64,000 nt of DNA from an uncultured Gammaproteobacteria bacterium. Lineage in GTDB: Bacteria; Patescibacteriota; Microgenomatia; Levybacterales; GWA1-39-11. Numbering within the stretch: the first letter of the stretch is position 1; each line of letters opens with the position of its first letter. Location: assembly GCA_964436385.1 (NCBI GenBank), contig CAYTCO010000003.1, forward strand, positions 5,342 to 69,341, read 5' to 3'. The translations under genes were made by a program, and so were the position numbers. The notes beneath the pieces are model-generated. The model was not told the DNA's origin, made no database searches, and saw nothing but the letters and a program-made list of their open reading frames with translations. This document shows positions 5,074-19,403 of this stretch, piece after piece.

Positions 5074-6081
5074 ATGGACAAAGTTTTTGGATTCGCGATT
5101 CTTTCACTTTTTATAACCTCAATTCTTATTGTTCCTTTTATAGACTTTCTCTATAAAATGAAACTTCAAAGGCAGAAGCAAAAGACGAGAGACATCTTTA
5201 ACAATAGAACTTATGTCTTTGATAAGCTTCACGAATGGAAAGTAGGAACTCCAATCGGAGGAGGAATTTTAATTATTTTTGTTGTTACAATCTTAACTCT
5301 TTGGGCATATGGTCTTTTTAGAGTTGACGTAAAGTTGTGGGAAATAAGCGTTCTTCTGTTTGCTTTTATAGGATTTGGGGCTCTTGGATTTTACGACGAT
5401 TTAAAAAAGATTTTAAATGCAGAAAGAACGGGTTTTTTCGGGTTAAGATTTTTGCACAAATTTGCTATTCAATGGGTTCTGGCTATAGTAATCGGTTGGG
5501 TACTTTTTATGAACGGTCATACTTTTGTTCATATTCCGGCCTTTGGAGTAGTATTTTTGGGTCCATTATATATCCTTTTTGCAGCATTTGTCATAGTGAG
5601 CTTTACAAACGCTTTCAATATCACAGATGGTCTTGATGGTCTTTCTTGTGGAGTTCTAATCATATGCTTGAGTGCTTTCTTGGTTATTTCAAGCGCTTTA
5701 CTAAATGAGTTTTTGGCTATCTTCATAGCCATTCTTCTTGGTGCTGTTGGTGCATTTCTTTACTTTAATATTTACAAGGCAAGGCTATGGCTTGGAGACG
5801 TTGGCTCACTTTCGTTAGGAGCGGTCCTTGCTGTTATTGGTCTTCTAACAGGAAAGGAGATTGCTGTGACAATTATTGGAGGGGTTTATGTAGTTGAGGT
5901 AGGTTCATCATTGATCCAAATACTTTCTAAAAAGTTCTTAAAAAGAAAGGCATTTCCTATTGCACCGCTGCATCTTTATTTCCTGAAAAAAGGTTGGGAA
6001 GAACCTAAAATAGTAATGAGAGGCTGGCTTATGGGATTCGCATTTGCACTTATTGGTCTCTACCTTGCATTTATCCAATAA
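5074..6081 (+). CDS. mraY: Phospho-N-acetylmuramoyl-pentapeptide transferase
   Basis: It has the NAFNITDGLDGL motif and about 10 TM segments in 335 aa. Confidence 0.85.
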   Translation: MDKVFGFAILSLFITSILIVPFIDFLYKMKLQRQKQKTRDIFNNRTYVFDKLHEWKVGTPIGGGILIIFVVTILTLWAYGLFRVDVKLWEISVLLFAFIGFGALGFYDDLKKILNAERTGFFGLRFLHKFAIQWVLAIVIGWVLFMNGHTFVHIPAFGVVFLGPLYILFAAFVIVSFTNAFNITDGLDGLSCGVLIICLSAFLVISSALLNEFLAIFIAILLGAVGAFLYFNIYKARLWLGDVGSLSLGAVLAVIGLLTGKEIAVTIIGGVYVVEVGSSLIQILSKKFLKRKAFPIAPLHLYFLKKGWEEPKIVMRGWLMGFAFALIGLYLAFIQ

Positions 6082-8978: not shown

Positions 8979-10280
8979 ATGAAGAATGTCGATGTTGTCG
9001 TGGGTATTGATATTGGGTCGTCAAAAGTAGCAACTCTTATAGCGCGCGCCGATGATGATGTAATAAATATCTTAGGTGTAAGCGAAGTCCCCTCAAAAGG
9101 AGTTAAAAAAGGCCAGATAGTAAATATTGAGGAAGCATCAGACGCTATTAACTCATCGTTAGATAGCGCAGAGCGAATGGCCGGTCATTCAATAGACCGT
9201 GTATTTGTCTCTGTATCTGGTGTTAACATTGAATCACAAAATTCAAAAGGAGTTGTTGCCGTAAGCCAGCCCGATGGTGAAATTTCAGAATACGACGTTG
9301 AAAGAGTTTTGGAAGCAGCAGGTGCAGTAAGTCTTCCCTCAACGAGAGAAATTATCCACGTTATTCCAAAGACTTTCACGGTCGATGGTGAGGGTGGAAT
9401 AAAGGATCCAGTTGGAATGTCGGGAGTAAGGCTTGAAGTTGACACTCACATAATTACAGCTAATTCCGCAGGTGTTAAGAATGTCGAAAAGATTCTCTCA
9501 TCTGAGGCAGGGGTTAATGTTCAAAGCCTTGTTTTTGCAGGTCTTGCCTCATCCTTATCAGTCCTTTCTGATACAGAAAAAGAGTTGGGGGTAGTTCTTG
9601 CTGATATTGGGGCAGGAGTTACAAATATTGCAATTTACGTAGATGGGTCCCTTTCTTATACAAGTGTTATTCCAATTGGCGCTCGTCACATTACAAATGA
9701 TTTGGCAATTGGACTTAAGATTTCACTTGAAAGCGCTGAGAAGATCAAGCTTTACCTTTCTAAGCACTACACAAGAAGAGTTAGAATTCCAAATAATGAA
9801 GAAAATAGAAAGAATAGACAAGAAGAAGATGAGCTAAATCTTGACGAACTTCATCTTCCAGAAGACGTTAAGAAGGTTTCTGCAAAGACTTTGGTTGAGG
9901 GAATAATAAAGCCTAGGCTAAACGAACTCTTTACAATGATTGCTTTGGAGATCAAAAAGAGTGGATTTGCAACCCAGACACCGGCAGGGCTTGTTATTAC
10001 AGGTGGTGGAGCAAAGACAGTAGGAGCTGAGGAAAGCGCAAAGAGAATGTTATCAATGACTGTTAGAGTAGGTACTCCTCAAAATATTGCAGGTCTTATT
10101 GATGACGTTGAGTCTCCAACTTTTGCAACAGCAGTTGGGTTACTTGAATACTCCAAGAGCTTTAGAGGTGAGGGTGTTTCTGGTCCCGGTCTTGCCGGTA
10201 TGCTCCCAGGATTTAAATTCGAAATTCCATCGGTTAATTCTCTCACTAAGCTTCTCAAAAAATTCCTGCCAAAGAAGTAG
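8979..10280 (+). CDS. ftsA: Cell division protein FtsA (actin-like ATPase)
   Basis: VVGIDIGSSKVATLIAR is the actin-fold phosphate-1 motif. The protein is 433 aa and sits immediately upstream of ftsZ. Confidence 0.85.
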   Translation: MKNVDVVVGIDIGSSKVATLIARADDDVINILGVSEVPSKGVKKGQIVNIEEASDAINSSLDSAERMAGHSIDRVFVSVSGVNIESQNSKGVVAVSQPDGEISEYDVERVLEAAGAVSLPSTREIIHVIPKTFTVDGEGGIKDPVGMSGVRLEVDTHIITANSAGVKNVEKILSSEAGVNVQSLVFAGLASSLSVLSDTEKELGVVLADIGAGVTNIAIYVDGSLSYTSVIPIGARHITNDLAIGLKISLESAEKIKLYLSKHYTRRVRIPNNEENRKNRQEEDELNLDELHLPEDVKKVSAKTLVEGIIKPRLNELFTMIALEIKKSGFATQTPAGLVITGGGAKTVGAEESAKRMLSMTVRVGTPQNIAGLIDDVESPTFATAVGLLEYSKSFRGEGVSGPGLAGMLPGFKFEIPSVNSLTKLLKKFLPKK

Positions 10281-10348: not shown

Positions 10349-11515
10349 ATGTTAATTAAGCCTCAAACAGCAAGCTTCGCAAAAATAAGAGTCATGGGAA
10401 TAGGTGGAGGAGGCGGAAATGCTACCAATTCAATGATCCTAGATGGTCAAATTGAAGGGGTAGATTTTATAGCAGTCAACACGGATGCTCAAGCGCTTCT
10501 CAACTCTCAAGCACAATCAAAACTTCAGATAGGTGAAAATATTACTCGTGGACTTGGATCTGGTGGAAATCCTGATGTTGGTCGTGCAGCAGCTGAGGAG
10601 AGCGTTGAGAGAATAAAGCAGTACTTAGAGGGATCAGATATGGTTTTTCTAACCGCTGGAATGGGTGGAGGAACAGGAACCGGAGCCTCATCTGTTATTG
10701 CAAGAGTTGCAAAAGAGGTAGGTGCTCTAACCGTTGCTGTTGTTACAAAACCATTTAACTTTGAAGGAACACGAAGAATGGTTGCAGCGGAAGATGGAAT
10801 TGAGGAGTTGAAGGAATATGTAGACACACTTATTGTTGTACCAAATCAAAGAATTCTAGATAGTGTAGACAAAAAGTTATCACTTCTTGAGGCATTTAGA
10901 GTTGCGGATTCAGTCCTTGGACACGGTGTTAAGGGCATATCAGATCTTATTACACAAAGCGGATACGTTAATGTCGATTTTGCCGATGTTAAAGCCATAA
11001 TGAATGACGCAGGAACAGCTCTAATGGGACTTGGAGTTGGGGTTGGAGAGAACAGAGCACAAATCGCAGCAAGACAAGCTATTTCATCTCCTCTTCTTGA
11101 GGTGAGTATGGATGGGGCACGCGGAGTTTTATTTAATATTGCAGGTGGAGAAGATCTATCACTTCAAGAGGTTGAGGAAGCATCTAGAATTATTACCCAA
11201 GCAGCAGATCCGGATGCAAACATCATCTTTGGAGCAACTATAGACAAAGGCGCATTTGATTCTATAAGAATTACACTTATTGCAACAGGCTTTGATGAGT
11301 CAAGAAAAAGACTTCAGCAAATGGTCCAAAGTACGATGGAAGAACAGGGACAAGATTACGGAAACGCAAATATGCAGGACAATAACCCTCAACAGGATCC
11401 ATATGGAGGAGGAAACATCAGTAATCCAACATTTCAGGCTGAAGAACCATCCCGTCGGGATGACGACGAAGAATCAGTCTTTGATATCCCCGCATTTCTG
11501 AGACAGAAAAATTGA
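10349..11515 (+). CDS. ftsZ: Cell division GTPase FtsZ
   Basis: It has the tubulin signature [20 protein letters not shown], and an acidic C-terminal tail ending DIPAFLR. Confidence 0.9.
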
Positions 11516-11621
11516 CGTTTAGTTTTCATATTTCCTACATATTACCCCGTGATTAAGTGATTGACAAGAGTCCTAAACTATATCATCTTGGTTCATTTTT
11601 TGGTAGAATGAGGCAACATAA

Positions 11622-13334
11622 ATGCGATACCAAAAATTCACAGTAAATAATTTTAAAGCAATAAAAAATGCTGAAATTGACCTTACGCAAGAAGGTTTGG
11701 TGTTGCTACTTGGTCTTAACGAATCTGGAAAAACAAGCGTACTTCGAGCAATTGAGGCATTTGATTCATCTAATGACATTGAAGATGCTGATGCAAGGCT
11801 AAGATTTTATAAAGGGATTCGCAACAAGAAGGAAGTAGATTCAACAGCCTCTGTTACGGCACAGATTTTAATTGAAAAAAGCGACAAAGATAGCCTTGTT
11901 GTATTGCTTACGCCCCATATTACGCAAGGAATCAATCCGAAGGATTTACAAATTGATACTCTCCAGATTTGCCGTTTGTTCGAATATAAAAACGCTGAAT
12001 TTGTAAAAGACGACTATCAATTAATGGGAGGTTTAGAAAAGCAACTCACTCTTGCGAATAAGACAGTTGAGAGTAATTTATGTAAAGAAATACTAAAAAT
12101 TCTTCCTTCCATTCAGTATTTTGAGGATTTTAAAGACCAAATTCCCGATTTCATAAGCATAGAAGCTAGTACACAGTACTACGACCCCGATTGGGCTAGC
12201 ACTATCGAGGGAATGTTTTTTCATGCTGACCCGAAAATCACTGTTACTCAGTTTTCAAACCTCGTTGATAAAAATCCACGTCAAACCGTTCTCAATAAAG
12301 TTAATAAAGCCTTAAACAAACAATTTACTGAGAGGTGGAACAAAAAACTAAAGGGTACAAAATCTATTCATAAGGTTGAGCTTGTATATTTCCCAGAGAA
12401 AAAGCTATTTACTTTTGAAATTGTCGGGGCTGATGGCGTAACTGTATTCGCAATTGAGGAAAGAAGCAAAGGCGCATTGTGGTATTTAACATTTCTTCTT
12501 AAAACTGAATTTAGAAAAAGAAAATTGCGTGCCGAATCTGGTAAAACGCTGTATTTGATTGATGAGCCTGGCTCTAACCTTCATTCTTCAGCACAAACAA
12601 ATATGGTAGAGGATTTTAGAACACTCGCAAGTGATTCCAATGTAATCTATACAACCCATAGTCAATATCTTATTGATAAAGAAAATCTTTCAAATGTGTA
12701 CATAGTGCAGGCTGCAAAAGGAGTAGTAAAGGTAACAAAATACCAGCAATACTTACAAGGGAAGAATATTGAAACATCATATTACCAACCAATAATCGAT
12801 GCTCTAGAAATACAGCCATTTACGTTGGATGCTCCTTGGAAAAAAGTAGTGTTAGTTGAAGGAGTCTATGATTATTGCGGATTTAGATTTATGTTTGAGC
12901 AAGTTCTTAAAAAGAAACTTGATTTCGTTATTATGCCTGGTACAGGAGCGTCCACGCTTAAAACTCTCATATCGTTGCATGTTGGATGGGGAGCATCAAC
13001 CTTTGTTTTACTTGATAATGATGATGAGGGAAGAGCAAACAAAGCGAGTTATCAGGTTAAATTTCCGCATATTGAAAAATCAATGCACGTTTTGGATTTT
13101 ATAGGGGTGGCAGGAGATTGTGAGTTTGAACAGATTTTCACTGATAAAGAGCGTAAGGACTTGTCAGCATTGGCGGGCTTCTCAGGACCAGTTACAAAAA
13201 AAGTATTTCAACAAACTCTTGCGAGCATATCCACTTCTGCAACATTATCAAAAAAAGCTACAAAACTAATTTCTTCAGCAACAGAAAAAAGATTTAAGAC
13301 GATACTCTCCTTTATCGAAAAAACCCTCGCATAA
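11622..13334 (+). CDS. OLD-family ATP-dependent endonuclease (ABC-type ATPase + Toprim), class 1 (stand-alone)
   Basis: It has a Walker A (LLGLNESGKTS), Walker B/D-loop (LYLIDEPGSNLH), a C-terminal Toprim-like VVLVEGVYD and VLLDNDDEG, and is 570 aa. No UvrD-like partner gene is adjacent. Confidence 0.65.
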   Translation: MRYQKFTVNNFKAIKNAEIDLTQEGLVLLLGLNESGKTSVLRAIEAFDSSNDIEDADARLRFYKGIRNKKEVDSTASVTAQILIEKSDKDSLVVLLTPHITQGINPKDLQIDTLQICRLFEYKNAEFVKDDYQLMGGLEKQLTLANKTVESNLCKEILKILPSIQYFEDFKDQIPDFISIEASTQYYDPDWASTIEGMFFHADPKITVTQFSNLVDKNPRQTVLNKVNKALNKQFTERWNKKLKGTKSIHKVELVYFPEKKLFTFEIVGADGVTVFAIEERSKGALWYLTFLLKTEFRKRKLRAESGKTLYLIDEPGSNLHSSAQTNMVEDFRTLASDSNVIYTTHSQYLIDKENLSNVYIVQAAKGVVKVTKYQQYLQGKNIETSYYQPIIDALEIQPFTLDAPWKKVVLVEGVYDYCGFRFMFEQVLKKKLDFVIMPGTGASTLKTLISLHVGWGASTFVLLDNDDEGRANKASYQVKFPHIEKSMHVLDFIGVAGDCEFEQIFTDKERKDLSALAGFSGPVTKKVFQQTLASISTSATLSKKATKLISSATEKRFKTILSFIEKTLA

Positions 13335-13343
13335 ATATTACGC

Positions 13344-13380
13344 CATGTCGCATTTCCACTATTGTGCGACATGATTTTGA
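13344..13380 (+). terminator. Hairpin followed by ATTTT downstream of the OLD nuclease gene
   Basis: CATGTCGCA (13344-13352) pairs with TGCGACATG (13365-13373) across a 12-nt loop and is followed by ATTTTGA. It lies 10 bp after the stop codon. Confidence 0.4.
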
Positions 13381-13710
13381 GGCTGGAATATAGAGCTATT
13401 TTAGCGCCTGAGGCTGGACGTATTACTATAAGACATTTTTATAACTCCTTTTGATGGTTTTTCGTATCGTCTCTTCATGTGTGATTTACTGGCGGGCAGG
13501 CGGTACATGGTGGGTGTTTCGTTATTGGCACACTTTTGTTGGCAGTTATAACAAAGCACATCCCCAGCGTGGCCAAATGAGGGTTTAGGGTCCAGGGGTA
13601 GGCAGTTCAAGCCCGTGGTGCGTAGAAGATTTTTTAGAATAACCCCGAAGCTAGAATATACGGTATCTCCTTTCAGGCCAGCCGATTTTTTTTAGGAAAT
13701 TTCTTGTAAA

Positions 13711-13719
13711 TGCTATAAT
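13711..13719 (+). promoter_or_regulatory. Extended -10 element TGcTATAAT
   Basis: TGCTATAAT at 13711-13719 ends only 6 nt before the annotated GTG start at 13726. This implies either a leaderless or very short leader, or a different true start. Confidence 0.25.
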
Positions 13720-13725
13720 GCTCAT

Positions 13726-14091
13726 GTGTTTGGACAAGAGTTAATTAAAAAACTTCCCGAGGATATACAAAAACTTGGAGCAATCGGCACGGTTTCGTAC
13801 ATTGGTGCATTGCTTTGTATGGTTGCAGCTTTTTTAACTGATTTTAGTACAGGTAAGGGATGGGCACTTATTGTTGCAGGGGTTGCACTGCTTACACTAT
13901 CAGGAGCAATTTATCTTAAAGAAACACTTGCACGGACTGCAAACCGTAAAGAAGCACTTACTACATTGAGAGAGGTATACAACCGCCTTGCTGAACAAAG
14001 CACTAAAGGTACAAATGAGCAAACTGTGTCAATAACAATGACTATCGCCGAGCTTCCAAAACGAATATTAGAAGTGCTTCACAAATTATAA
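13726..14091 (+). CDS. Hypothetical membrane protein (2 predicted TM helices)
   Basis: It has a GTG start and hydrophobic stretches (IGTVSYIGALLCMVAAFL and WALIVAGVALLTLSGAIYL) followed by a charged C-terminal tail. No recognisable motif. Confidence 0.4.
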   Translation: MFGQELIKKLPEDIQKLGAIGTVSYIGALLCMVAAFLTDFSTGKGWALIVAGVALLTLSGAIYLKETLARTANRKEALTTLREVYNRLAEQSTKGTNEQTVSITMTIAELPKRILEVLHKL

Positions 14092-14120
14092 TAATTTTGC
14101 TTCTTACTGCAAATGACGGA

Positions 14121-14648
14121 CTACTTAAAAAATTGTTTGAAAAAATTAGCAATACCGTTATATATTGTAGAGAAAAAGTTACCTTGCTGTTGGGGCATGA
14201 TTTTCGGCTCATCATCATAATAATTTTCTTCGCTTGGTATAATTGAATTAGGCTTTAATGTAGGTTTGGGTTCTTCGGTGGGGGTATTTGTATAATAGGT
14301 GCGTTTGGGAGTAGATGCTGATGTAGGCGTAACAACAACCTCTTTAATAACTTCTATTACTTGAGGTACTGATGTGGGGGCTATTGGATTAGGCGCAGTA
14401 TTTTTGCTATCCCAATAACTTTTGCATCTTTGAGCATAATCATTCTTCAAAGATAAATATTTCTGATAGCAAGAATCAAGAATATCGTATGTACCACTAT
14501 ACGAGGTATAAACACAAGCTTTATTGCTCTCATATGGTGGTACGGGTGGTATTACGCACCCTTCTTGTGCCAAAATAGGTAGTGCAGAATTAGAAAATAA
14601 AAAGATGAATAAAAGTACAGTTATGACTTGCTTAATAAAATTTTTCAT
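14121..14648 (-). CDS. Secreted Cys-containing, Pro/Thr-rich protein of unknown function
   Basis: It has an N-terminal signal peptide (MKNFIKQVITVLLFIFLFSNSALPILAQEG), 4 Cys in the first 60 mature residues, and a PT-rich linker. Confidence 0.45.
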   Translation of the reverse strand: MKNFIKQVITVLLFIFLFSNSALPILAQEGCVIPPVPPYESNKACVYTSYSGTYDILDSCYQKYLSLKNDYAQRCKSYWDSKNTAPNPIAPTSVPQVIEVIKEVVVTPTSASTPKRTYYTNTPTEEPKPTLKPNSIIPSEENYYDDEPKIMPQQQGNFFSTIYNGIANFFKQFFK

Positions 14649-15294
14649 ACAACTTGCCTAGGTGTTTAGTAAAAAGTGCATACTCTTCTTCTGCCATCTT
14701 ACTGTTTTCGGTAATTCGCTCATTCAGTAATTCTATATCCTTGTTTAGTATCATAATTTCGTCAAGCATTTTTTCTGATTTTGCTGTTACATACCGTTCT
14801 TTCGAATATAGTTTATTTTTTTCTTCAAGCAGTTTTTGTTTTTCTTCATATTGTACCCATAATGGCTCGCTGTCTTCCCAGTATTCCCAATACGGGCTGG
14901 CATAAAACTTTTTATATGTACTTATGTAATCGTTCTTTTTTTCGTATTCAGTCCCCGCAGTGTAATTAAATGTCATTTCGATTAAAGACCTAGGAGGTTC
15001 CAATGCCTCAAGTTCGCTTATCTTTTCCTTTAAAGCTGCTTTTGCTTTTGTTACTGTATTTCTTTTCTCCAGGTTAATCAGTTTAATCGCATCATACCCC
15101 TCATCTTTTGTAAGGTTATAAAATTTTGCATTAAAATTACCGTTGGTTATAGGAAAAGTAATAATCACAAGGAATACGAATAAACCAATTACGAGTAAAG
15201 CTATCTTTATGAAAAGTCTATAGCTTTTTATTTTTTTGTATATTTTGGTAAAAAACTTAATCATATAACGACTGCTCATGCTTCCTATAACCAT
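14632..15294 (-). CDS. N-terminally membrane-anchored coiled-coil protein of unknown function
   Basis: It has one TM helix (LFIKIALLVIGLFVFLVIITFPI) followed by heptad-like E/K-rich sequence. It overlaps the downstream secreted-protein gene by 17 bp. Confidence 0.45.
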   Translation of the reverse strand: MVIGSMSSRYMIKFFTKIYKKIKSYRLFIKIALLVIGLFVFLVIITFPITNGNFNAKFYNLTKDEGYDAIKLINLEKRNTVTKAKAALKEKISELEALEPPRSLIEMTFNYTAGTEYEKKNDYISTYKKFYASPYWEYWEDSEPLWVQYEEKQKLLEEKNKLYSKERYVTAKSEKMLDEIMILNKDIELLNERITENSKMAEEEYALFTKHLGKLYEKFY

Positions 15295-15391
15295 ACTGTA
15301 TGCATTATCTCATAAATACGCAATACTAATGCGGTTTCGGTGTACGAATATCTAAAATACCATTGTGATAATTTGGTAAGAATATACGACT

Positions 15392-15574
15392 CTAGCTTCT
15401 ATTTTGGTCAATGATTTTTTTTGATTTCATTTCTTCTGCCTTTTGCTTTCCCCTATTTTTTGCCATCTCAAGTAACTTTAGTCTATCCTTTTCTTGAAGA
15501 GTTTTCATCATCTTCTCGTAAATTTGCTCAGCCGTCATTTTTCTTGGATTAAATATGCCAATCAGTTTTTTCAT
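15392..15574 (-). CDS. Small basic (Lys-rich) hypothetical protein
   Basis: The ORF is 60 aa, and its start overlaps the stop of the FtsK-gamma gene by 1 nt, suggesting translational coupling. Confidence 0.3.
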   Translation of the reverse strand: MKKLIGIFNPRKMTAEQIYEKMMKTLQEKDRLKLLEMAKNRGKQKAEEMKSKKIIDQNRS

Positions 15575-15786
15575 TAATTAAGGAATTTATGTTTTATAAC
15601 TTTTATCTTAGTAGACTCTCCCGTTTCGACATAACCCATTTCCTCTAATTTTTTGATTACTTTCTGTGCTCCTAGATAGCCTATTTGAAGCTTCCTTGAG
15701 ATAAATGGCCAAGAAATATAGTCCTCTTTAATAACTATTTCAACGGCACGGTCAATTTGAGTACCATTCTTTCCTTTTCTGCCCAT
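15574..15786 (-). CDS. Stand-alone FtsK/SpoIIIE gamma-domain (winged-helix) protein
   Basis: RAVEIVIKEDYISWPFISRKLQIGYLGAQKVIKKLEEMGYVE matches the FtsK gamma-domain pattern A.E.V...xxxS.S.LQR.LRIGYNRAARLID.LE..G.V. The protein is 70 aa. Confidence 0.55.
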   Translation of the reverse strand: MGRKGKNGTQIDRAVEIVIKEDYISWPFISRKLQIGYLGAQKVIKKLEEMGYVETGESTKIKVIKHKFLN

Positions 15787-15788
15787 AC

Positions 15789-16154
15789 TTAACGATTAGC
15801 CGACACTTCATCTATAATCTTCTTCATGTCTTGATTCATCGATTCAATTTGCAAGTCAGCGTTTTTTCTTTTCACATTGAATTCGTCTAGCTTCCGTGCC
15901 TCTTCTTCAAAATTGCATGTGCTGAGATGAGTAGCACACGCTGTTGCTGTATTGTAGGCTTCAGAGCACGATTCTGCGAGGTTCTGTGATGCTTCCATGC
16001 TACCAATAGCGTTCGATAGAATCCTTGCGGTCAGCTTCTCACTTGAACTTAATTCTGCCCTGGTGTAGATAAATACCACTAAAGCACCTATGAACAAGCA
16101 GGCCATTCCAATTAGTAGTTCTTTTTTAGACAGAATCTGAATTTTCTTTTTCAT
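15789..16154 (-). CDS. Hypothetical single-pass membrane protein with a Cys-containing soluble domain
   Basis: It has one TM helix (LLIGMACLFIGALVVFIY), then an approximately 85-aa domain containing CSEAYNTATACATHLSTC. Confidence 0.4.
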   Translation of the reverse strand: MKKKIQILSKKELLIGMACLFIGALVVFIYTRAELSSSEKLTARILSNAIGSMEASQNLAESCSEAYNTATACATHLSTCNFEEEARKLDEFNVKRKNADLQIESMNQDMKKIIDEVSANR

Positions 16155-16488
16155 GCTGTTTTATATGCCCATCAACCTCATCCGATATTCTTTTATCCTT
16201 CTCCCTTCTTTTTTTAGCATCATCCTCTAGGGCTGAATAATGCATCCTATCATATTTGTCATAAACCATTTCCTGACCAGCAAGAAAACCCGTAATTGAA
16301 AATATGATTATAACCGTAAAGACCGAGAAAAAATCCGACTTACCCAGTGCAAAATAAACGAAAACTAATCCCCCAAAAAACAGAACTCCAACTACAAATT
16401 TTGTGTGCTTATACCCTCTCATATTATAAATAAGCTCAAGAACATCATAACTCCGACTAACTTTTATTTCAATAGGAATTAAGGCCAA
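16126..16488 (-). CDS. Hypothetical membrane protein (2 TM) with a charged C-terminal tail
   Basis: It is the first gene of a minus-strand operon that diverges from the XRE gene. It has two hydrophobic helices followed by a K/E/D-rich tail. Confidence 0.4.
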   Translation of the reverse strand: MALIPIEIKVSRSYDVLELIYNMRGYKHTKFVVGVLFFGGLVFVYFALGKSDFFSVFTVIIIFSITGFLAGQEMVYDKYDRMHYSALEDDAKKRREKDKRISDEVDGHIKQHEKENSDSV

Positions 16489-16500
16489 ATGCTCGCTCTA

Positions 16501-16520
16501 GGCTAGTGGAGTCTCTAGCC
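16501..16520. promoter_or_regulatory. Short inverted repeat GGCTAG-N8-CTAGCC in the divergent promoter region
   Basis: It lies in the 53-bp gap between the minus-strand operon start (16488) and the XRE regulator start (16542). It is a candidate operator. Confidence 0.25.
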
Positions 16521-16541
16521 AATAGCTATCAAAATTAGGAC

Positions 16542-16760
16542 ATGGGTAAAACACCAAAGATTTACGAGAAGCTAGGAAGAAAGATTCAGAAGGCCAGAAA
16601 AGAAAAAGGTATAACCCAGGAGAGATTAGCCGAGCTTTCAGATATATCGAGAACTCATATGGGGCATATTGAGCAGGGAAGAAGACAACCTACTCTGGAT
16701 GTTATACAGAAAATTGCAAAAGCATTGAAAATGAAAGCAAACGAACTAATCCCCTTCTAA
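16542..16760 (+). CDS. XRE-family (Cro/CI-type) helix-turn-helix transcriptional regulator
   Basis: ITQERLAELSDISRTHMGHIEQGRRQPTLDVIQKIAKALKMKANEL is the classic HTH_3 pattern. The protein is 72 aa and is divergent from the membrane-protein operon. Confidence 0.8.
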   Translation: MGKTPKIYEKLGRKIQKARKEKGITQERLAELSDISRTHMGHIEQGRRQPTLDVIQKIAKALKMKANELIPF

Positions 16761-17116
16761 TACTATAAGTCTAGTAATTGTTAAGATAGTGTTAGGTGTG
16801 ATTTTAAGCTTTATTTATGCCTGATTACGCTTAAAAATAAATCAACTTTTCCTACGTATTATAAGTCATTTATCTATACCAACGGAGTGTTTTAAGGATG
16901 ATATTTTGAAATCGTCCTTGACAAATACAGTTTTAGTCGGATAGGGTAAATATTAATCCAGGTTGAGAACTGGCATTGTAAAGGGCTAAGTCTGACACGC
17001 AATGTTAAACAAAGATGGGTCAGAGGGAGTAAAGGTAAGAGTATATAGGTCAGCAAGCATACAATCTCACAGTGTGCAGAGATGAGGCACGGGGTTGTAC
17101 TTCAAGAGGGAGCAGA

Positions 17117-17166
17117 GGTCATATATGACCCAATGGCTTGGAGTTTTACAAACACTTACAAACACT
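17117..17166. repeat. 14-bp perfect palindrome GGTCATATATGACC followed by a tandem 2 x TACAAACACT
   Basis: The palindrome is at 17117-17130 and the tandem 10-mers at 17147-17156 and 17157-17166. They lie inside a 568-bp non-coding gap (16761-17328) next to the integrase gene. Confidence 0.4.
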
Positions 17167-17328
17167 CACGAAATAATGAGTCAATTTGCACTAACTCTAA
17201 TGGGGGGAAGGGGGGAGGTTTGCTCCGCAAACAAAGATAGAAAAAAAGCCATTTTTAATTCTATTAAAAAATGCTTAAGAAAGAAAAAAAGTAATAAAGT
17301 AATTTTAAACTTAAAGCTACTTAAAACT

Positions 17329-18396
17329 TTAAATAATAGGGAGAGTTGCGCTTTCAAGTGATTCTTCGGGAGCAAGTGATAATAAAATATTGTATGAATT
17401 ATTGTCTCCATTGATTTTAAAATTAAATCTACTATCTGCTCCAAACTTAAACTTATTTAAAAGCTCCATGAATTCATCTATTCTATCTTGTGGATTTTCA
17501 TACTTTCTTAGCAACGGATGTTTTCTGACTGCTTTTTGAAGTGTTGTATCTGCTAAATGTATATACGTTTCGTATGTTACCCGTATGTCTTTGTGTCCCA
17601 AGAGTTTTGCAACAATTGTTATATCAATTCCAGATTGAAGCAAGTGTGTTGCGAATGTGTGACGAAGAATGTGTGCATGTAGTCTCTCAAATTTACTTAT
17701 TCCAGCAAGTTTTCCTCTTAATCTAAGATTTTCATTAAATGTTCCTGGCAATATTTTATTTCCTGTGCTTCCAGTAAAGATAAGTTCCTCAGAATCTCTC
17801 TCTTGGATAAGCCCCCTTAGAGAATTTTTTAATTTATCGCCATCAAAGTAAACATTTCTATTATCTCCATTTTTAGTTTGCACCAAATAAGCTTTACCGT
17901 TTTCAATATCAAGCCTTTTTATTTGAAGTGAAGCAGCTTCATCAAACCTACAGCCAGTTATGGCCAAAAATTCAGTTAGAGTTAGATATTTGTCATCAAG
18001 GCTACTGTTATTCTTTCCATTCCTGTTTTTGTATTCCACTTTAGTGGACAATAAGCTTACTAGCTCGTCTTCTGAGAGAATCGTTATATCTGGATGTGTT
18101 TTGGGTAGATTCTTTGTGCCTTCAGTGAATCCGAACGGTAGTTTATGATATTTGCAATATTTATCTATCAATAGGAACACATTCCGATATGTGTTTACAG
18201 TGGAGTTACTACGCTTGAGCGTATACTTCTGCGCGTACAAGAAGTTAATAACGTTCTCGTTGGTCAACTCAAGATTATTTTCCTCAAGCCAAGCCGTTAT
18301 TATTCTAAAACGGTTACGATATGTACGGATTGTATTACCGACAATTCCTTGATTAATTGTCAGAAACTTTATGAACTCTTCTTCTTTGATTTTCAT
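17329..18396 (-). CDS. Tyrosine recombinase/integrase, Xer-like
   Basis: The C-terminal HILRHTFATHLLQSGIDITIVAKLLGHKDIRVTYETYIHL closely matches the XerC/XerD box II/III (R..H..LLGH...Y). The protein is 355 aa with an N-terminal SAM-like core-binding region. Confidence 0.85.
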   Translation of the reverse strand: MKIKEEEFIKFLTINQGIVGNTIRTYRNRFRIITAWLEENNLELTNENVINFLYAQKYTLKRSNSTVNTYRNVFLLIDKYCKYHKLPFGFTEGTKNLPKTHPDITILSEDELVSLLSTKVEYKNRNGKNNSSLDDKYLTLTEFLAITGCRFDEAASLQIKRLDIENGKAYLVQTKNGDNRNVYFDGDKLKNSLRGLIQERDSEELIFTGSTGNKILPGTFNENLRLRGKLAGISKFERLHAHILRHTFATHLLQSGIDITIVAKLLGHKDIRVTYETYIHLADTTLQKAVRKHPLLRKYENPQDRIDEFMELLNKFKFGADSRFNFKINGDNNSYNILLSLAPEESLESATLPII

Positions 18397-18801
18397 GCTT
18401 ACTGATTTGATTCAATAAGCAAGGGCTGAAAAATTTACAATTCTTTTTAAGTAGGGGAAGTATCTACAAGAGAATCGTAATTAACATAATTATATCAAAT
18501 TTGAGGCTAAAAATCAATCCCCAAAATATTTTATACTTGACTTGCCTCAAAAATTGCCCTGCTTTTTGAATGCAAATTGGAGAAGTAATTAATTTTTGAT
18601 GTATAATATTTGTGTATTTCTGAGTCGGAAAAGTAATTAGTATATGAGGCTAGTATCTTTCTTGGTTCATGAGTCCCCGCTTTTTTACGTCAGAAAAATT
18701 AAAAAGCCGAGGCTCGACCGAACGGGCGGCCCCGCAGTTCTACGACAAAAGAACTAAACATCTTGACAACTAGACTTAATTTGTTATAACATTGTTATAT
18801 T

Positions 18802-19017
18802 ATGGTACAGCAATTAATCTCTATAGGTAATTCTGTTGGGGTAATCATTCCAAAAAATGTGCTTAAAGAGAAGAATATAAAATTGGGTGATACGGTTGAA
18901 TTTGACATCAAGTCTGTTAAGCCAAAAACTACAGATGTAGATGTTCGTTTCATGAAGATGGTTGACGAGTTTGTTGAAGACCACAAAGATGTTCTTCAAA
19001 AACTCGCAACTCGATGA
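18802..19017 (+). CDS. AbrB/MazE/SpoVT-fold antitoxin (Phd-like partner of Doc)
   Basis: ISIGNSVGVIIPKNVLKEKNIKLGDTVEF is the swapped-hairpin AbrB-type motif. The protein is 71 aa and overlaps the Doc gene by 4 bp. A promoter-like TTGACA-N17-TATAAC lies upstream, around 18763. Confidence 0.65.
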   Translation: MVQQLISIGNSVGVIIPKNVLKEKNIKLGDTVEFDIKSVKPKTTDVDVRFMKMVDEFVEDHKDVLQKLATR

Positions 19018-19403
19018 AATACTTATCTACCCCTCAAGTTTTGGCGATTCACGATCAAATGGTAAAAAGATTTGGTGGCTCAATGGGCATTAGAGATTTA
19101 GACCTGATTGAATCTGCCGTTGAAAGACCAAAAACAACTTTTGATGGAGCTGATTTGTATTCCACAATCTTTACAAAGGCAGCTGTATTTATGCACTCTT
19201 TGTTGAAAAATCATGCGTTTGTTGACGGAAATAAGAGAACATCTTATGCTTCCTGTGGTATCTTCCTGAAACTAAATGGCTACGAGCTAGAAAATATGCA
19301 TAATGCAAGCTTGGAATTTACCATGAAGGTCGAAAATGATTCCATTAAGATTGGGGAAATCTCTGAATGGCTTGATAAACATTCAGTTAGACTACCTAAG
19401 TAG
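19014..19403 (+). CDS. Doc/Fic-family toxin (death-on-curing)
   Basis: It has the Fic/Doc motif HAFVDGNKRT (HxFx(D/E)GNKR). The protein is 129 aa. Confidence 0.75.
   Translation: MKYLSTPQVLAIHDQMVKRFGGSMGIRDLDLIESAVERPKTTFDGADLYSTIFTKAAVFMHSLLKNHAFVDGNKRTSYASCGIFLKLNGYELENMHNASLEFTMKVENDSIKIGEISEWLDKHSVRLPK

Follow-up and report, generated by a model that had tools for sequence, protein, structure and literature searches.

The window analysed here is a 64-kb stretch of DNA from a bacterium of the candidate phyla radiation (CPR). Within it, at about 11514-18700, a 7.19-kb integrative element is inserted in the Levybacteria-like genome; the element contains an OLD-family gene, seven small open reading frames (ORFs), an XRE-family helix-turn-helix (HTH) regulator and an integrase. 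In the first-pass annotation, which had been made from the sequence letters, the seven ORFs were described as one operon of small membrane and secreted proteins between the OLD nuclease and the XRE switch. All seven are present in the ORF list at the coordinates it gave, and the identities it had assigned to the FtsK-gamma protein, the XRE regulator and the OLD nuclease were confirmed by Pfam and PADLOC. The operon itself held only in part: six of the genes are co-oriented, but p121plus lies on the opposite strand and is convergent with them, and a 97-nt gap splits p60 from p220. The string consists of six co-oriented genes in two modules and one separate gene, and the seven ORFs are real genes in three modules with separate histories, referred to below as module A (the XRE switch plus p98, p121minus, p70 and p60), module B (the p220-p175 pair) and module C (p121plus). 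The features of the element, with transmembrane helices abbreviated as TM, are as follows:

11487-11513, attL, a 27-nt direct repeat over the last ftsZ codons (ending IPAFLRQKN-stop), repeat family D1 plus duplicated tail peptide
11622-13334, plus strand, OLD-family ATPase-TOPRIM protein of 570 aa, the terminal defence cargo
13335-13725, non-coding stretch of 390 nt, richer in G+C, with TATAAT 7 nt before the GTG of p121plus
13726-14091, plus strand, p121plus, a 2-TM protein with a GTG start, co-oriented with OLD and convergent with the string
14121-14648, minus strand, p175, secreted, with a signal peptide, a 4-Cys head (C31, C45, C60, C75), a disordered stalk rich in Pro/Thr and, at the C-terminus, an amphipathic helix
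14632-15294, minus strand, p220, an N-terminal TM anchor plus an all-helical domain, overlapping p175 by 17 nt
15392-15574, minus strand, p60, fourth gene of module A, a small basic helical protein, 54-58% identical to the same-position genes of L099 and L101
15574-15786, minus strand, p70, third gene, a stand-alone FtsK_gamma-type winged helix, 41-53% identical to L099 and L101
15789-16154, minus strand, p121minus, second gene, with an N-terminal TM anchor, an outside helical domain and three conserved Cys, 44-45% identical to L099 and L101
16126-16422, minus strand, p98, first gene, a hairpin of two TM helices whose C-terminal tail is charged; the 100-aa counterparts in L099 and L101 share 33-35% identity with it
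16126-16488, minus strand, the 120-aa ORF as first listed, here shortened to p98
16423-16541, divergent control region, with a promoter-like TTGAAA-17-TATGAT (16472-16444) and repeated GCTA/TAGC half-sites (16501-16528)
16542-16760, plus strand, XRE-family HTH regulator of 72 aa (Pfam HTH_3, E 1.7e-15), 92% identical to the L099-L101 proteins
16761-17328, non-coding stretch of 568 nt with the sole long G-run of the window
17329-18396, minus strand, tyrosine integrase of 355 aa (Pfam Phage_integrase, E 4.8e-32)
18674-18700, attR, the displaced original ftsZ end (VPAFLRQKN-stop), followed by the ancestral ftsZ-abrB spacer and colinear with the L018 empty site

The window opens with cell-wall and division genes, including FtsA (8979-10280) and FtsZ (10349-11515) in the ORF list, and the relatives of this FtsZ in species-representative genomes (66-72% identity) assign the host to the Levybacteria-like Microgenomates. 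The second repeat copy (18674-18700) is located immediately outside the integrase, and empty sites were found in the related loci L018 (11036-11155) and L009, where ftsZ is directly followed by abrB-doc. The integrase, the flanking direct repeats and the empty site in relatives by which a tyrosine-recombinase integrative element is recognized are all present. The element was placed in the last ftsZ codons by the tyrosine integrase, and the replacement FtsZ tail is element-supplied. Three other contigs that contain the element are 100% identical to, and colinear with, the window. In this respect the first-pass annotation, which had placed the genes in an integrative element under a divergent control region of XRE type, is supported.

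The ftsZ 3' end is a recurrent attachment site because, in addition to the empty sites, related integrases directly adjoin ftsZ in five other genomes (L005, L020, L030, L033 and L044) and second FtsZ tails are found downstream in relatives, 7.5 kb away in L005 (tails at 11150 and 18697) and 6.4 kb away in L020 (11108 and 17484). It is targeted by two tyrosine integrase clades, 39-43% identical mutually, in both Levybacteria- and Gottesmanbacteria-like genomes. The last ftsZ codons replaced by these elements encode the conserved FtsZ C-terminal peptide. Integrases that target and restore the 3' end of a protein-coding gene are described for the dusA, trmE and yicC islands (PMC8409611, PMC8978831). 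Such islands, like the window element, enter a conserved gene at its last codons and supply a near-identical replacement end, whereas the target of the window element is ftsZ, whose last residues form the conserved C-terminal peptide. A full-text literature search returned no paper pairing "end of ftsZ" with attB or integrase.

Several further observations were made around the attachment site. A third repeat copy at 18729-18755 was rejected as an att site, as it is also present in the L018 empty site. Directly after attR, an abrB-type antitoxin and a Fic/Doc toxin (18802-19403) are chromosomal and outside the element, and the pair is likewise found behind ftsZ where the site is empty, in L018 (65% and 75% identity) and in L009. 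In L003, a 30-codon FtsZ tail remnant (5866-5958) lies between uvrC and an integrase and is oriented as that integrase, while the tail in the window is inverted relative to its integrase.

The seven ORFs are more than chance reading frames because a codon-frame test, substitution patterns and syntenic homologues all speak for them. When scored with a codon model derived from 19 long genes of the host, all seven ORFs were best in their annotated frame of six, and two ORFs inside the non-coding gaps were not best in their own frames. Against their relatives, p220 and p175 have pN of 0.23-0.35 and pS of 0.66-0.84 and are, by this measure, under strong purifying selection. Syntenic homologues were found elsewhere for six of the seven ORFs; the first-pass annotation had reasoned that a lack of conservation or synteny in any relative would suggest spurious ORFs, and conserved and syntenic relatives are what the neighbourhood comparison found for those six. 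The TM and signal features that it had listed agree with a hydropathy and charge scan, which gave two TM helices in the 120-aa protein and the plus-strand 121-aa protein, a single TM helix near the N-terminus, preceded by basic residues, in p220 and p121minus, a signal-peptide-like N-terminus on p175 and no TM helix in the 70-aa or 60-aa protein.

Two start positions were revised. The start of the 120-aa ORF is most likely M23, the ATG at 16422, which gives a protein of 98 aa, since the first 22 codons fall in nucleotide-conserved control DNA and the L099-L101 genes start at the equivalent ATG. Similarly, p220 probably starts at M6 (15279), because the database call is 215 aa and AGGAAG precedes that ATG.

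The XRE regulator falls in a cluster of 11 proteins at 90% identity, two members of which were traced to L099/L100 and L101. In all three of these loci, XRE is divergent from four homologous genes in the same order as in the window, encoding proteins of 100 aa (2-TM), 115-121 aa (1-TM, three conserved Cys), 71 aa (FtsK_gamma) and 49-51 aa (basic). In L099 and L101, module A is followed by co-oriented hsdM-S-R genes of a type I restriction-modification (R-M) system, plus a GajB-like helicase or PDC-S54; on the other side are three unknown genes and a large serine recombinase adjoining tRNA-His. The XRE gene and control region have about 80% nucleotide identity with L099, L100 and L101 over 337 nt (window 16438-16772), and the operon about 65%. 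The promoter-like site is conserved, with TTGAAA-17-TATGAT in the window and TTGAAT-17-TATTAT in L099, as are the GCTA/TAGC half-sites.

This arrangement recalls a cI/Cro-type switch, in that an XRE-family HTH gene and an operon point away from each other on either side of a short region that contains repeated half-sites, and a divergent HTH repressor with repeated putative operators is indeed what was found. The second component, a Cro-like HTH as the first opposing gene, was not: the first gene is p98, the operon starts with membrane proteins, and XRE lacks a cleavable C-terminal domain. The third gene, p70, diverges (41-53% identity) while XRE stays 92% identical.

p70 is the only one of the small proteins with a clear domain assignment, matching Pfam FtsK_gamma (PF09397) at 41.6 bits (cut-off 30.6, E 9.8e-11); its L099 homologue scores 36.1 bits, and the p70 profile matches solved FtsK gamma domain structures with E 0.01. 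The p70-family profile (alignment A8) also matches residues 84-133 of PDB 9mug_A, annotated as a "HORMA domain-containing protein", with E 6e-4, which is better than the FtsK gamma structures. p70 is probably a DNA-binding protein, for which an excisionase role is unlikely; the latter was rejected because module A accompanies both a tyrosine and a serine integrase. Stand-alone FtsK_gamma genes of unknown role are present in phages, and a small terminase with an FtsK_gamma domain has been described (PMC8190038). p70 likewise has about 70 aa and comprises the gamma winged helix only, but differs from these phage genes in that it constantly belongs to a set of four genes, two of them for membrane proteins, and lacks a terminase fusion.

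The presence of an FtsK-gamma-type domain beside several small membrane proteins in an integrative element could also be read as a minimal module for cell-to-cell DNA transfer, a possibility raised in the first-pass annotation. Actinomycete integrative elements carry TraB, an FtsK-like translocase with a winged-helix recognition domain, together with small membrane Spd proteins. However, no RecA-type motor domain with Walker A (FtsK/SpoIIIE/TraB) was found in the 11.5-18.7 kb region, where p70 is the gamma domain only (70 aa), and no relaxase, coupling protein or type IV secretion system was found in the element. Membership in this class comes close to being refuted, and we regard a transfer function as very improbable.

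Module B has a different distribution. The p220 relatives are 62% (L003) and 59% (L087) identical to the window protein, and the 17-nt p220/p175 overlap is identical in all three loci. L003 is an integrase-bearing element with an FtsZ tail remnant, a Phage_CRI rolling-circle Rep (E 3.7e-9), two unknown genes, the p220-p175 pair and an AlbA_2 gene; it is without any module A gene, and its pair has its own promoter-like site. Besides itself, p220 has one relative and p175 two in a word index of 5.8 billion proteins, and a profile search against 1.84 billion representatives identified 11 true relatives or clusters of the p175 family. All p175 relatives (alignment A5) have a signal peptide, a four-Cys head, a variable Pro/Thr/Glu-rich stretch and a C-terminal amphipathic helix, and the head contains the motif YDSCYQxYL..K.DY...CFRYWD and four Cys that are invariant or nearly so. 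No relative was found for the p220 alignment in the genome-contig collection or for the p175 alignment in the metagenome-contig collection.

The p175 relatives are located on short contigs. Where the context could be read, the usual neighbours are an integrase and an XRE gene. In L094-L098, an integrase and a divergent XRE are directly beside the gene, and in L088 and L092 the relatives occur in strings of unrelated small TM proteins. The latter were considered as distant p98 or p121minus homologues and rejected (hhalign probability below 2%). L005 (13590-16803) and L020 (13768-14743) have their own strings of small signal-anchored or secreted Cys- and Pro/Thr-rich proteins, which are not detectably related to the window proteins. 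In the AlphaFold2 (AF2) models, p220 is a TM helix with long helices (pLDDT 73), and p175 has a confident head (residues 31-84), a disordered stalk and a terminal helix.

The independent distribution of the modules bears directly on the proposal that the string is one undescribed system accompanying the OLD nuclease. If all seven genes formed one co-evolving envelope system working with OLD, the tight spacing and common orientation of the six genes between OLD and XRE would be well explained. However, module A is found without the pair or OLD in L099-L101, and the pair without module A or OLD in L003, while no relative of p121plus was found, and it lies on the opposite strand. Module A, the p220-p175 pair and p121plus occur independently of one another in the elements, so the notion of a single system was not sustained, nor was a specific association with OLD, as module A accompanies type I R-M elsewhere and the pair an AlbA_2 gene. 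We consider a seven-gene system with OLD extremely improbable.

Another possibility is that the 6.4-7.5 kb ftsZ-targeting elements are undescribed small non-tailed temperate viruses, filamentous or pleomorphic, whose coat, assembly and receptor-binding functions would be served by the small TM proteins, p220 and p175. The filamentous-phage-type Rep of L003 fits such a virus, as does the element size; p175 is built like an adsorption protein, with a signal peptide, a disulfide head, a flexible linker and a C-terminal membrane-binding helix, and strings of small signal-anchored Cys/Pro/Thr-rich proteins are present in L005 and L020 as well. On the other hand, none of the elements was found to have a Zot/pI-type assembly ATPase (searched in the window element, L003, L005 and L088), a capsid gene or a lysis gene, and L003 has p220-p175 without a small TM coat candidate. 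The Phage_CRI Rep is absent from the window element and, among the elements examined, was found in L003 only. The p175, p220, p121minus, p98 and p70 families have no relative in 2.9 million IMG/VR contigs, and tblastn detected none of them in GenBank phages or PLSDB plasmids.

The element was found to contain no endolysin or lysin domain, and thus no holin-endolysin or spanin cassette; a weak Rz-like match (E 0.007) was observed for the 100-aa protein of L099. Homology to phage structural or lysis proteins, which the first-pass annotation had named as evidence against its proposal, was not found in the searches of phage and viral collections. More generally, family and RNA scans detected no tRNA, Rfam family, replication gene, capsid, terminase, relaxase or lysin in the element. 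A virus of this kind appears clearly unlikely.

The remainder of the element comprises the OLD gene, p121plus and two non-coding stretches. The OLD protein has the layout of its family by domain assignment, an ABC-type ATPase followed by a TOPRIM domain: Pfam gave AAA_15 with E 1.7e-21 and a match to OLD-like_TOPRIM that, at 22.1 bits, falls slightly short of the cut-off of 23.2, and PADLOC gave AriA with E 1.4e-23 and Old with E 3.5e-19 over residues 300-527. p121plus is a singleton 90% cluster and has no tblastn match in the fetched loci, phages or plasmids. For the seven small proteins, PADLOC reported only weak matches with E of about 0.01, namely p121plus to a SLATT-type model (E 0.01) and p220 to the JetC coiled coil.

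Two long non-coding stretches stand out in a very compact element and could hold an origin or binding sites. Neither 13335-13725 (fold z-scores +0.8 and +1.2) nor 16761-17328 (-1.35 and -2.2) gave an Rfam match, a significant fold or a codon signal. The latter stretch includes the G-run GGGGGGAAGGGGGGAGG (17201-17220), the sole place in the 64-kb window with at least 12 G in 15 nt, and a matching C-run is found just downstream of a 68%-identical integrase in L085 (about 4314). The G-run was rejected as a KOPS-like target of p70, since it is absent from L099 and L101 and tracks the integrase clade.

Every related element ends in a defence gene. The cargo is OLD in the window, an AbiP2 reverse transcriptase in L005 (E 9e-173), a PDC-S36/PD-T4-1-like protein in L044, AlbA_2 in L003, type I R-M and a GajB-like helicase in L099, and type I R-M and PDC-S54 in L101 (E 6e-141). 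The GajB-like UvrD helicase of L099 (225-1916) lies at the very start of a 341-kb contig, and a GajA (OLD-like) partner could lie past the contig end. Defence hotspots of temperate phages and satellites include the P2 locus with old, tin and AbiP2 and the P4 hotspots, and other small mobile defence islands are comparable. As in these hotspots, the window element is small and integrase-bearing, with a variable end that holds one or a few defence genes, and the OLD of the window and the AbiP2 of the sister element L005 are the two families that alternate at the P2 locus. It differs from them in having no recognizable structural, packaging or replication genes, in its CPR host and in a backbone unrelated to phage families.

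Given this company, module A might itself be a defence or abortive-infection system residing in defence islands, in which sensing of foreign DNA would fall to the winged helix and collapse of the membrane to the two membrane proteins. Module A adjoins OLD in the window, and its neighbours in L099 and L101 are type I R-M, PDC-S54 and a GajB-like helicase; p98, with its pair of TM helices and charged tail, resembles a holin or 2-TM effector in build, and the XRE protein matches defence-associated regulators in PADLOC, such as CapH and C-proteins. However, none of the four module A proteins has a PADLOC match, and in all three independent contexts the module is always directly beside the XRE and recombinase side of the element, as a backbone would be. 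The sample is also too small for guilt by association, and we regard this explanation as rather unlikely.

Small membrane proteins that confer superinfection exclusion or lysogenic conversion are known from prophages, for example Sie2009, Ltp and SieA. The window element likewise encodes small membrane-anchored or secreted proteins near an integrase and a repressor. Its proteins have no sequence or fold similarity to them, and the 4-Cys head of p175 was seen in about 11 clusters only. An exclusion or defence role, as the first-pass annotation had proposed, is plausible by association in that every related element carries defence cargo.

Considering these findings together, we give an even chance to the reading that the element is a small mobile defence island in which module A serves as control and maintenance backbone and p220-p175 as an envelope-acting accessory cargo for exclusion or defence. 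In such an island, XRE would bind the repeated GCTA/TAGC sites and govern the leftward transcript, p70 would bind DNA, and p98 and p121minus would act in the membrane. p220 would be anchored in the membrane with its helical domain outside, and p175 would display a disulfide-stapled head on its Pro/Thr stalk. The two may form a surface complex, probably altering the envelope so that incoming phages or rival elements are excluded.

Some points weigh against this reading. The XRE sites are putative, as their assignment as operators comes from sequence conservation alone. Module A is known from just three or four loci and module B from just three, and the seven proteins gave no family other than FtsK_gamma in Pfam, PHROGs, PADLOC and NCBIfam, as the first-pass annotation had noted for the small proteins. 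The remote homology and structural checks that it proposed yielded no family or fold that explains the small proteins (p220 and p175 were modelled), nor did the literature offer an explanation: in Foldseek searches of PDB and BFVD, the p220 model matched only generic helical bundles, BAR-like and coiled-coil structures, none with E of 1e-3 or better, and the p175 model had no match at all. The p175 relatives are always in elements and often the first gene after XRE, and a core life-cycle role fits this as well as a cargo role does. The window element has no recognizable replication gene, which bears on its autonomy. A more far-reaching option, which we think doubtful, is that module A represents a new kind of membrane-acting system of CPR elements, serving abortive infection or exclusion, or that together with p220-p175 it forms the particle and exit machinery of an undescribed class of temperate elements, 6-8 kb long and inserting at ftsZ or tRNA-His, by which defence genes are spread through CPR bacteria.

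In its general type, a small integrative element that combines a repressor-type switch with defence cargo, the window element is of a known kind. The two conserved gene sets, the p175 family and the use of ftsZ as attachment site are features for which no described counterpart was found. CPR bacteria account for a large part of bacterial diversity, and to our knowledge almost nothing is known of their mobile elements or phage resistance. What the locus reveals is a family of integrative elements of very small size, by which known defence genes (OLD, AbiP2, type I R-M and PDC candidates) are shuttled and which have in common backbone and envelope modules without described relatives. The attachment site at the ftsZ 3' end offers a simple handle for finding further elements and their cargo. 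With the two conserved gene sets as small and concrete candidates for expression tests, the persistence and movement of such elements, and the protection of their hosts, become testable.

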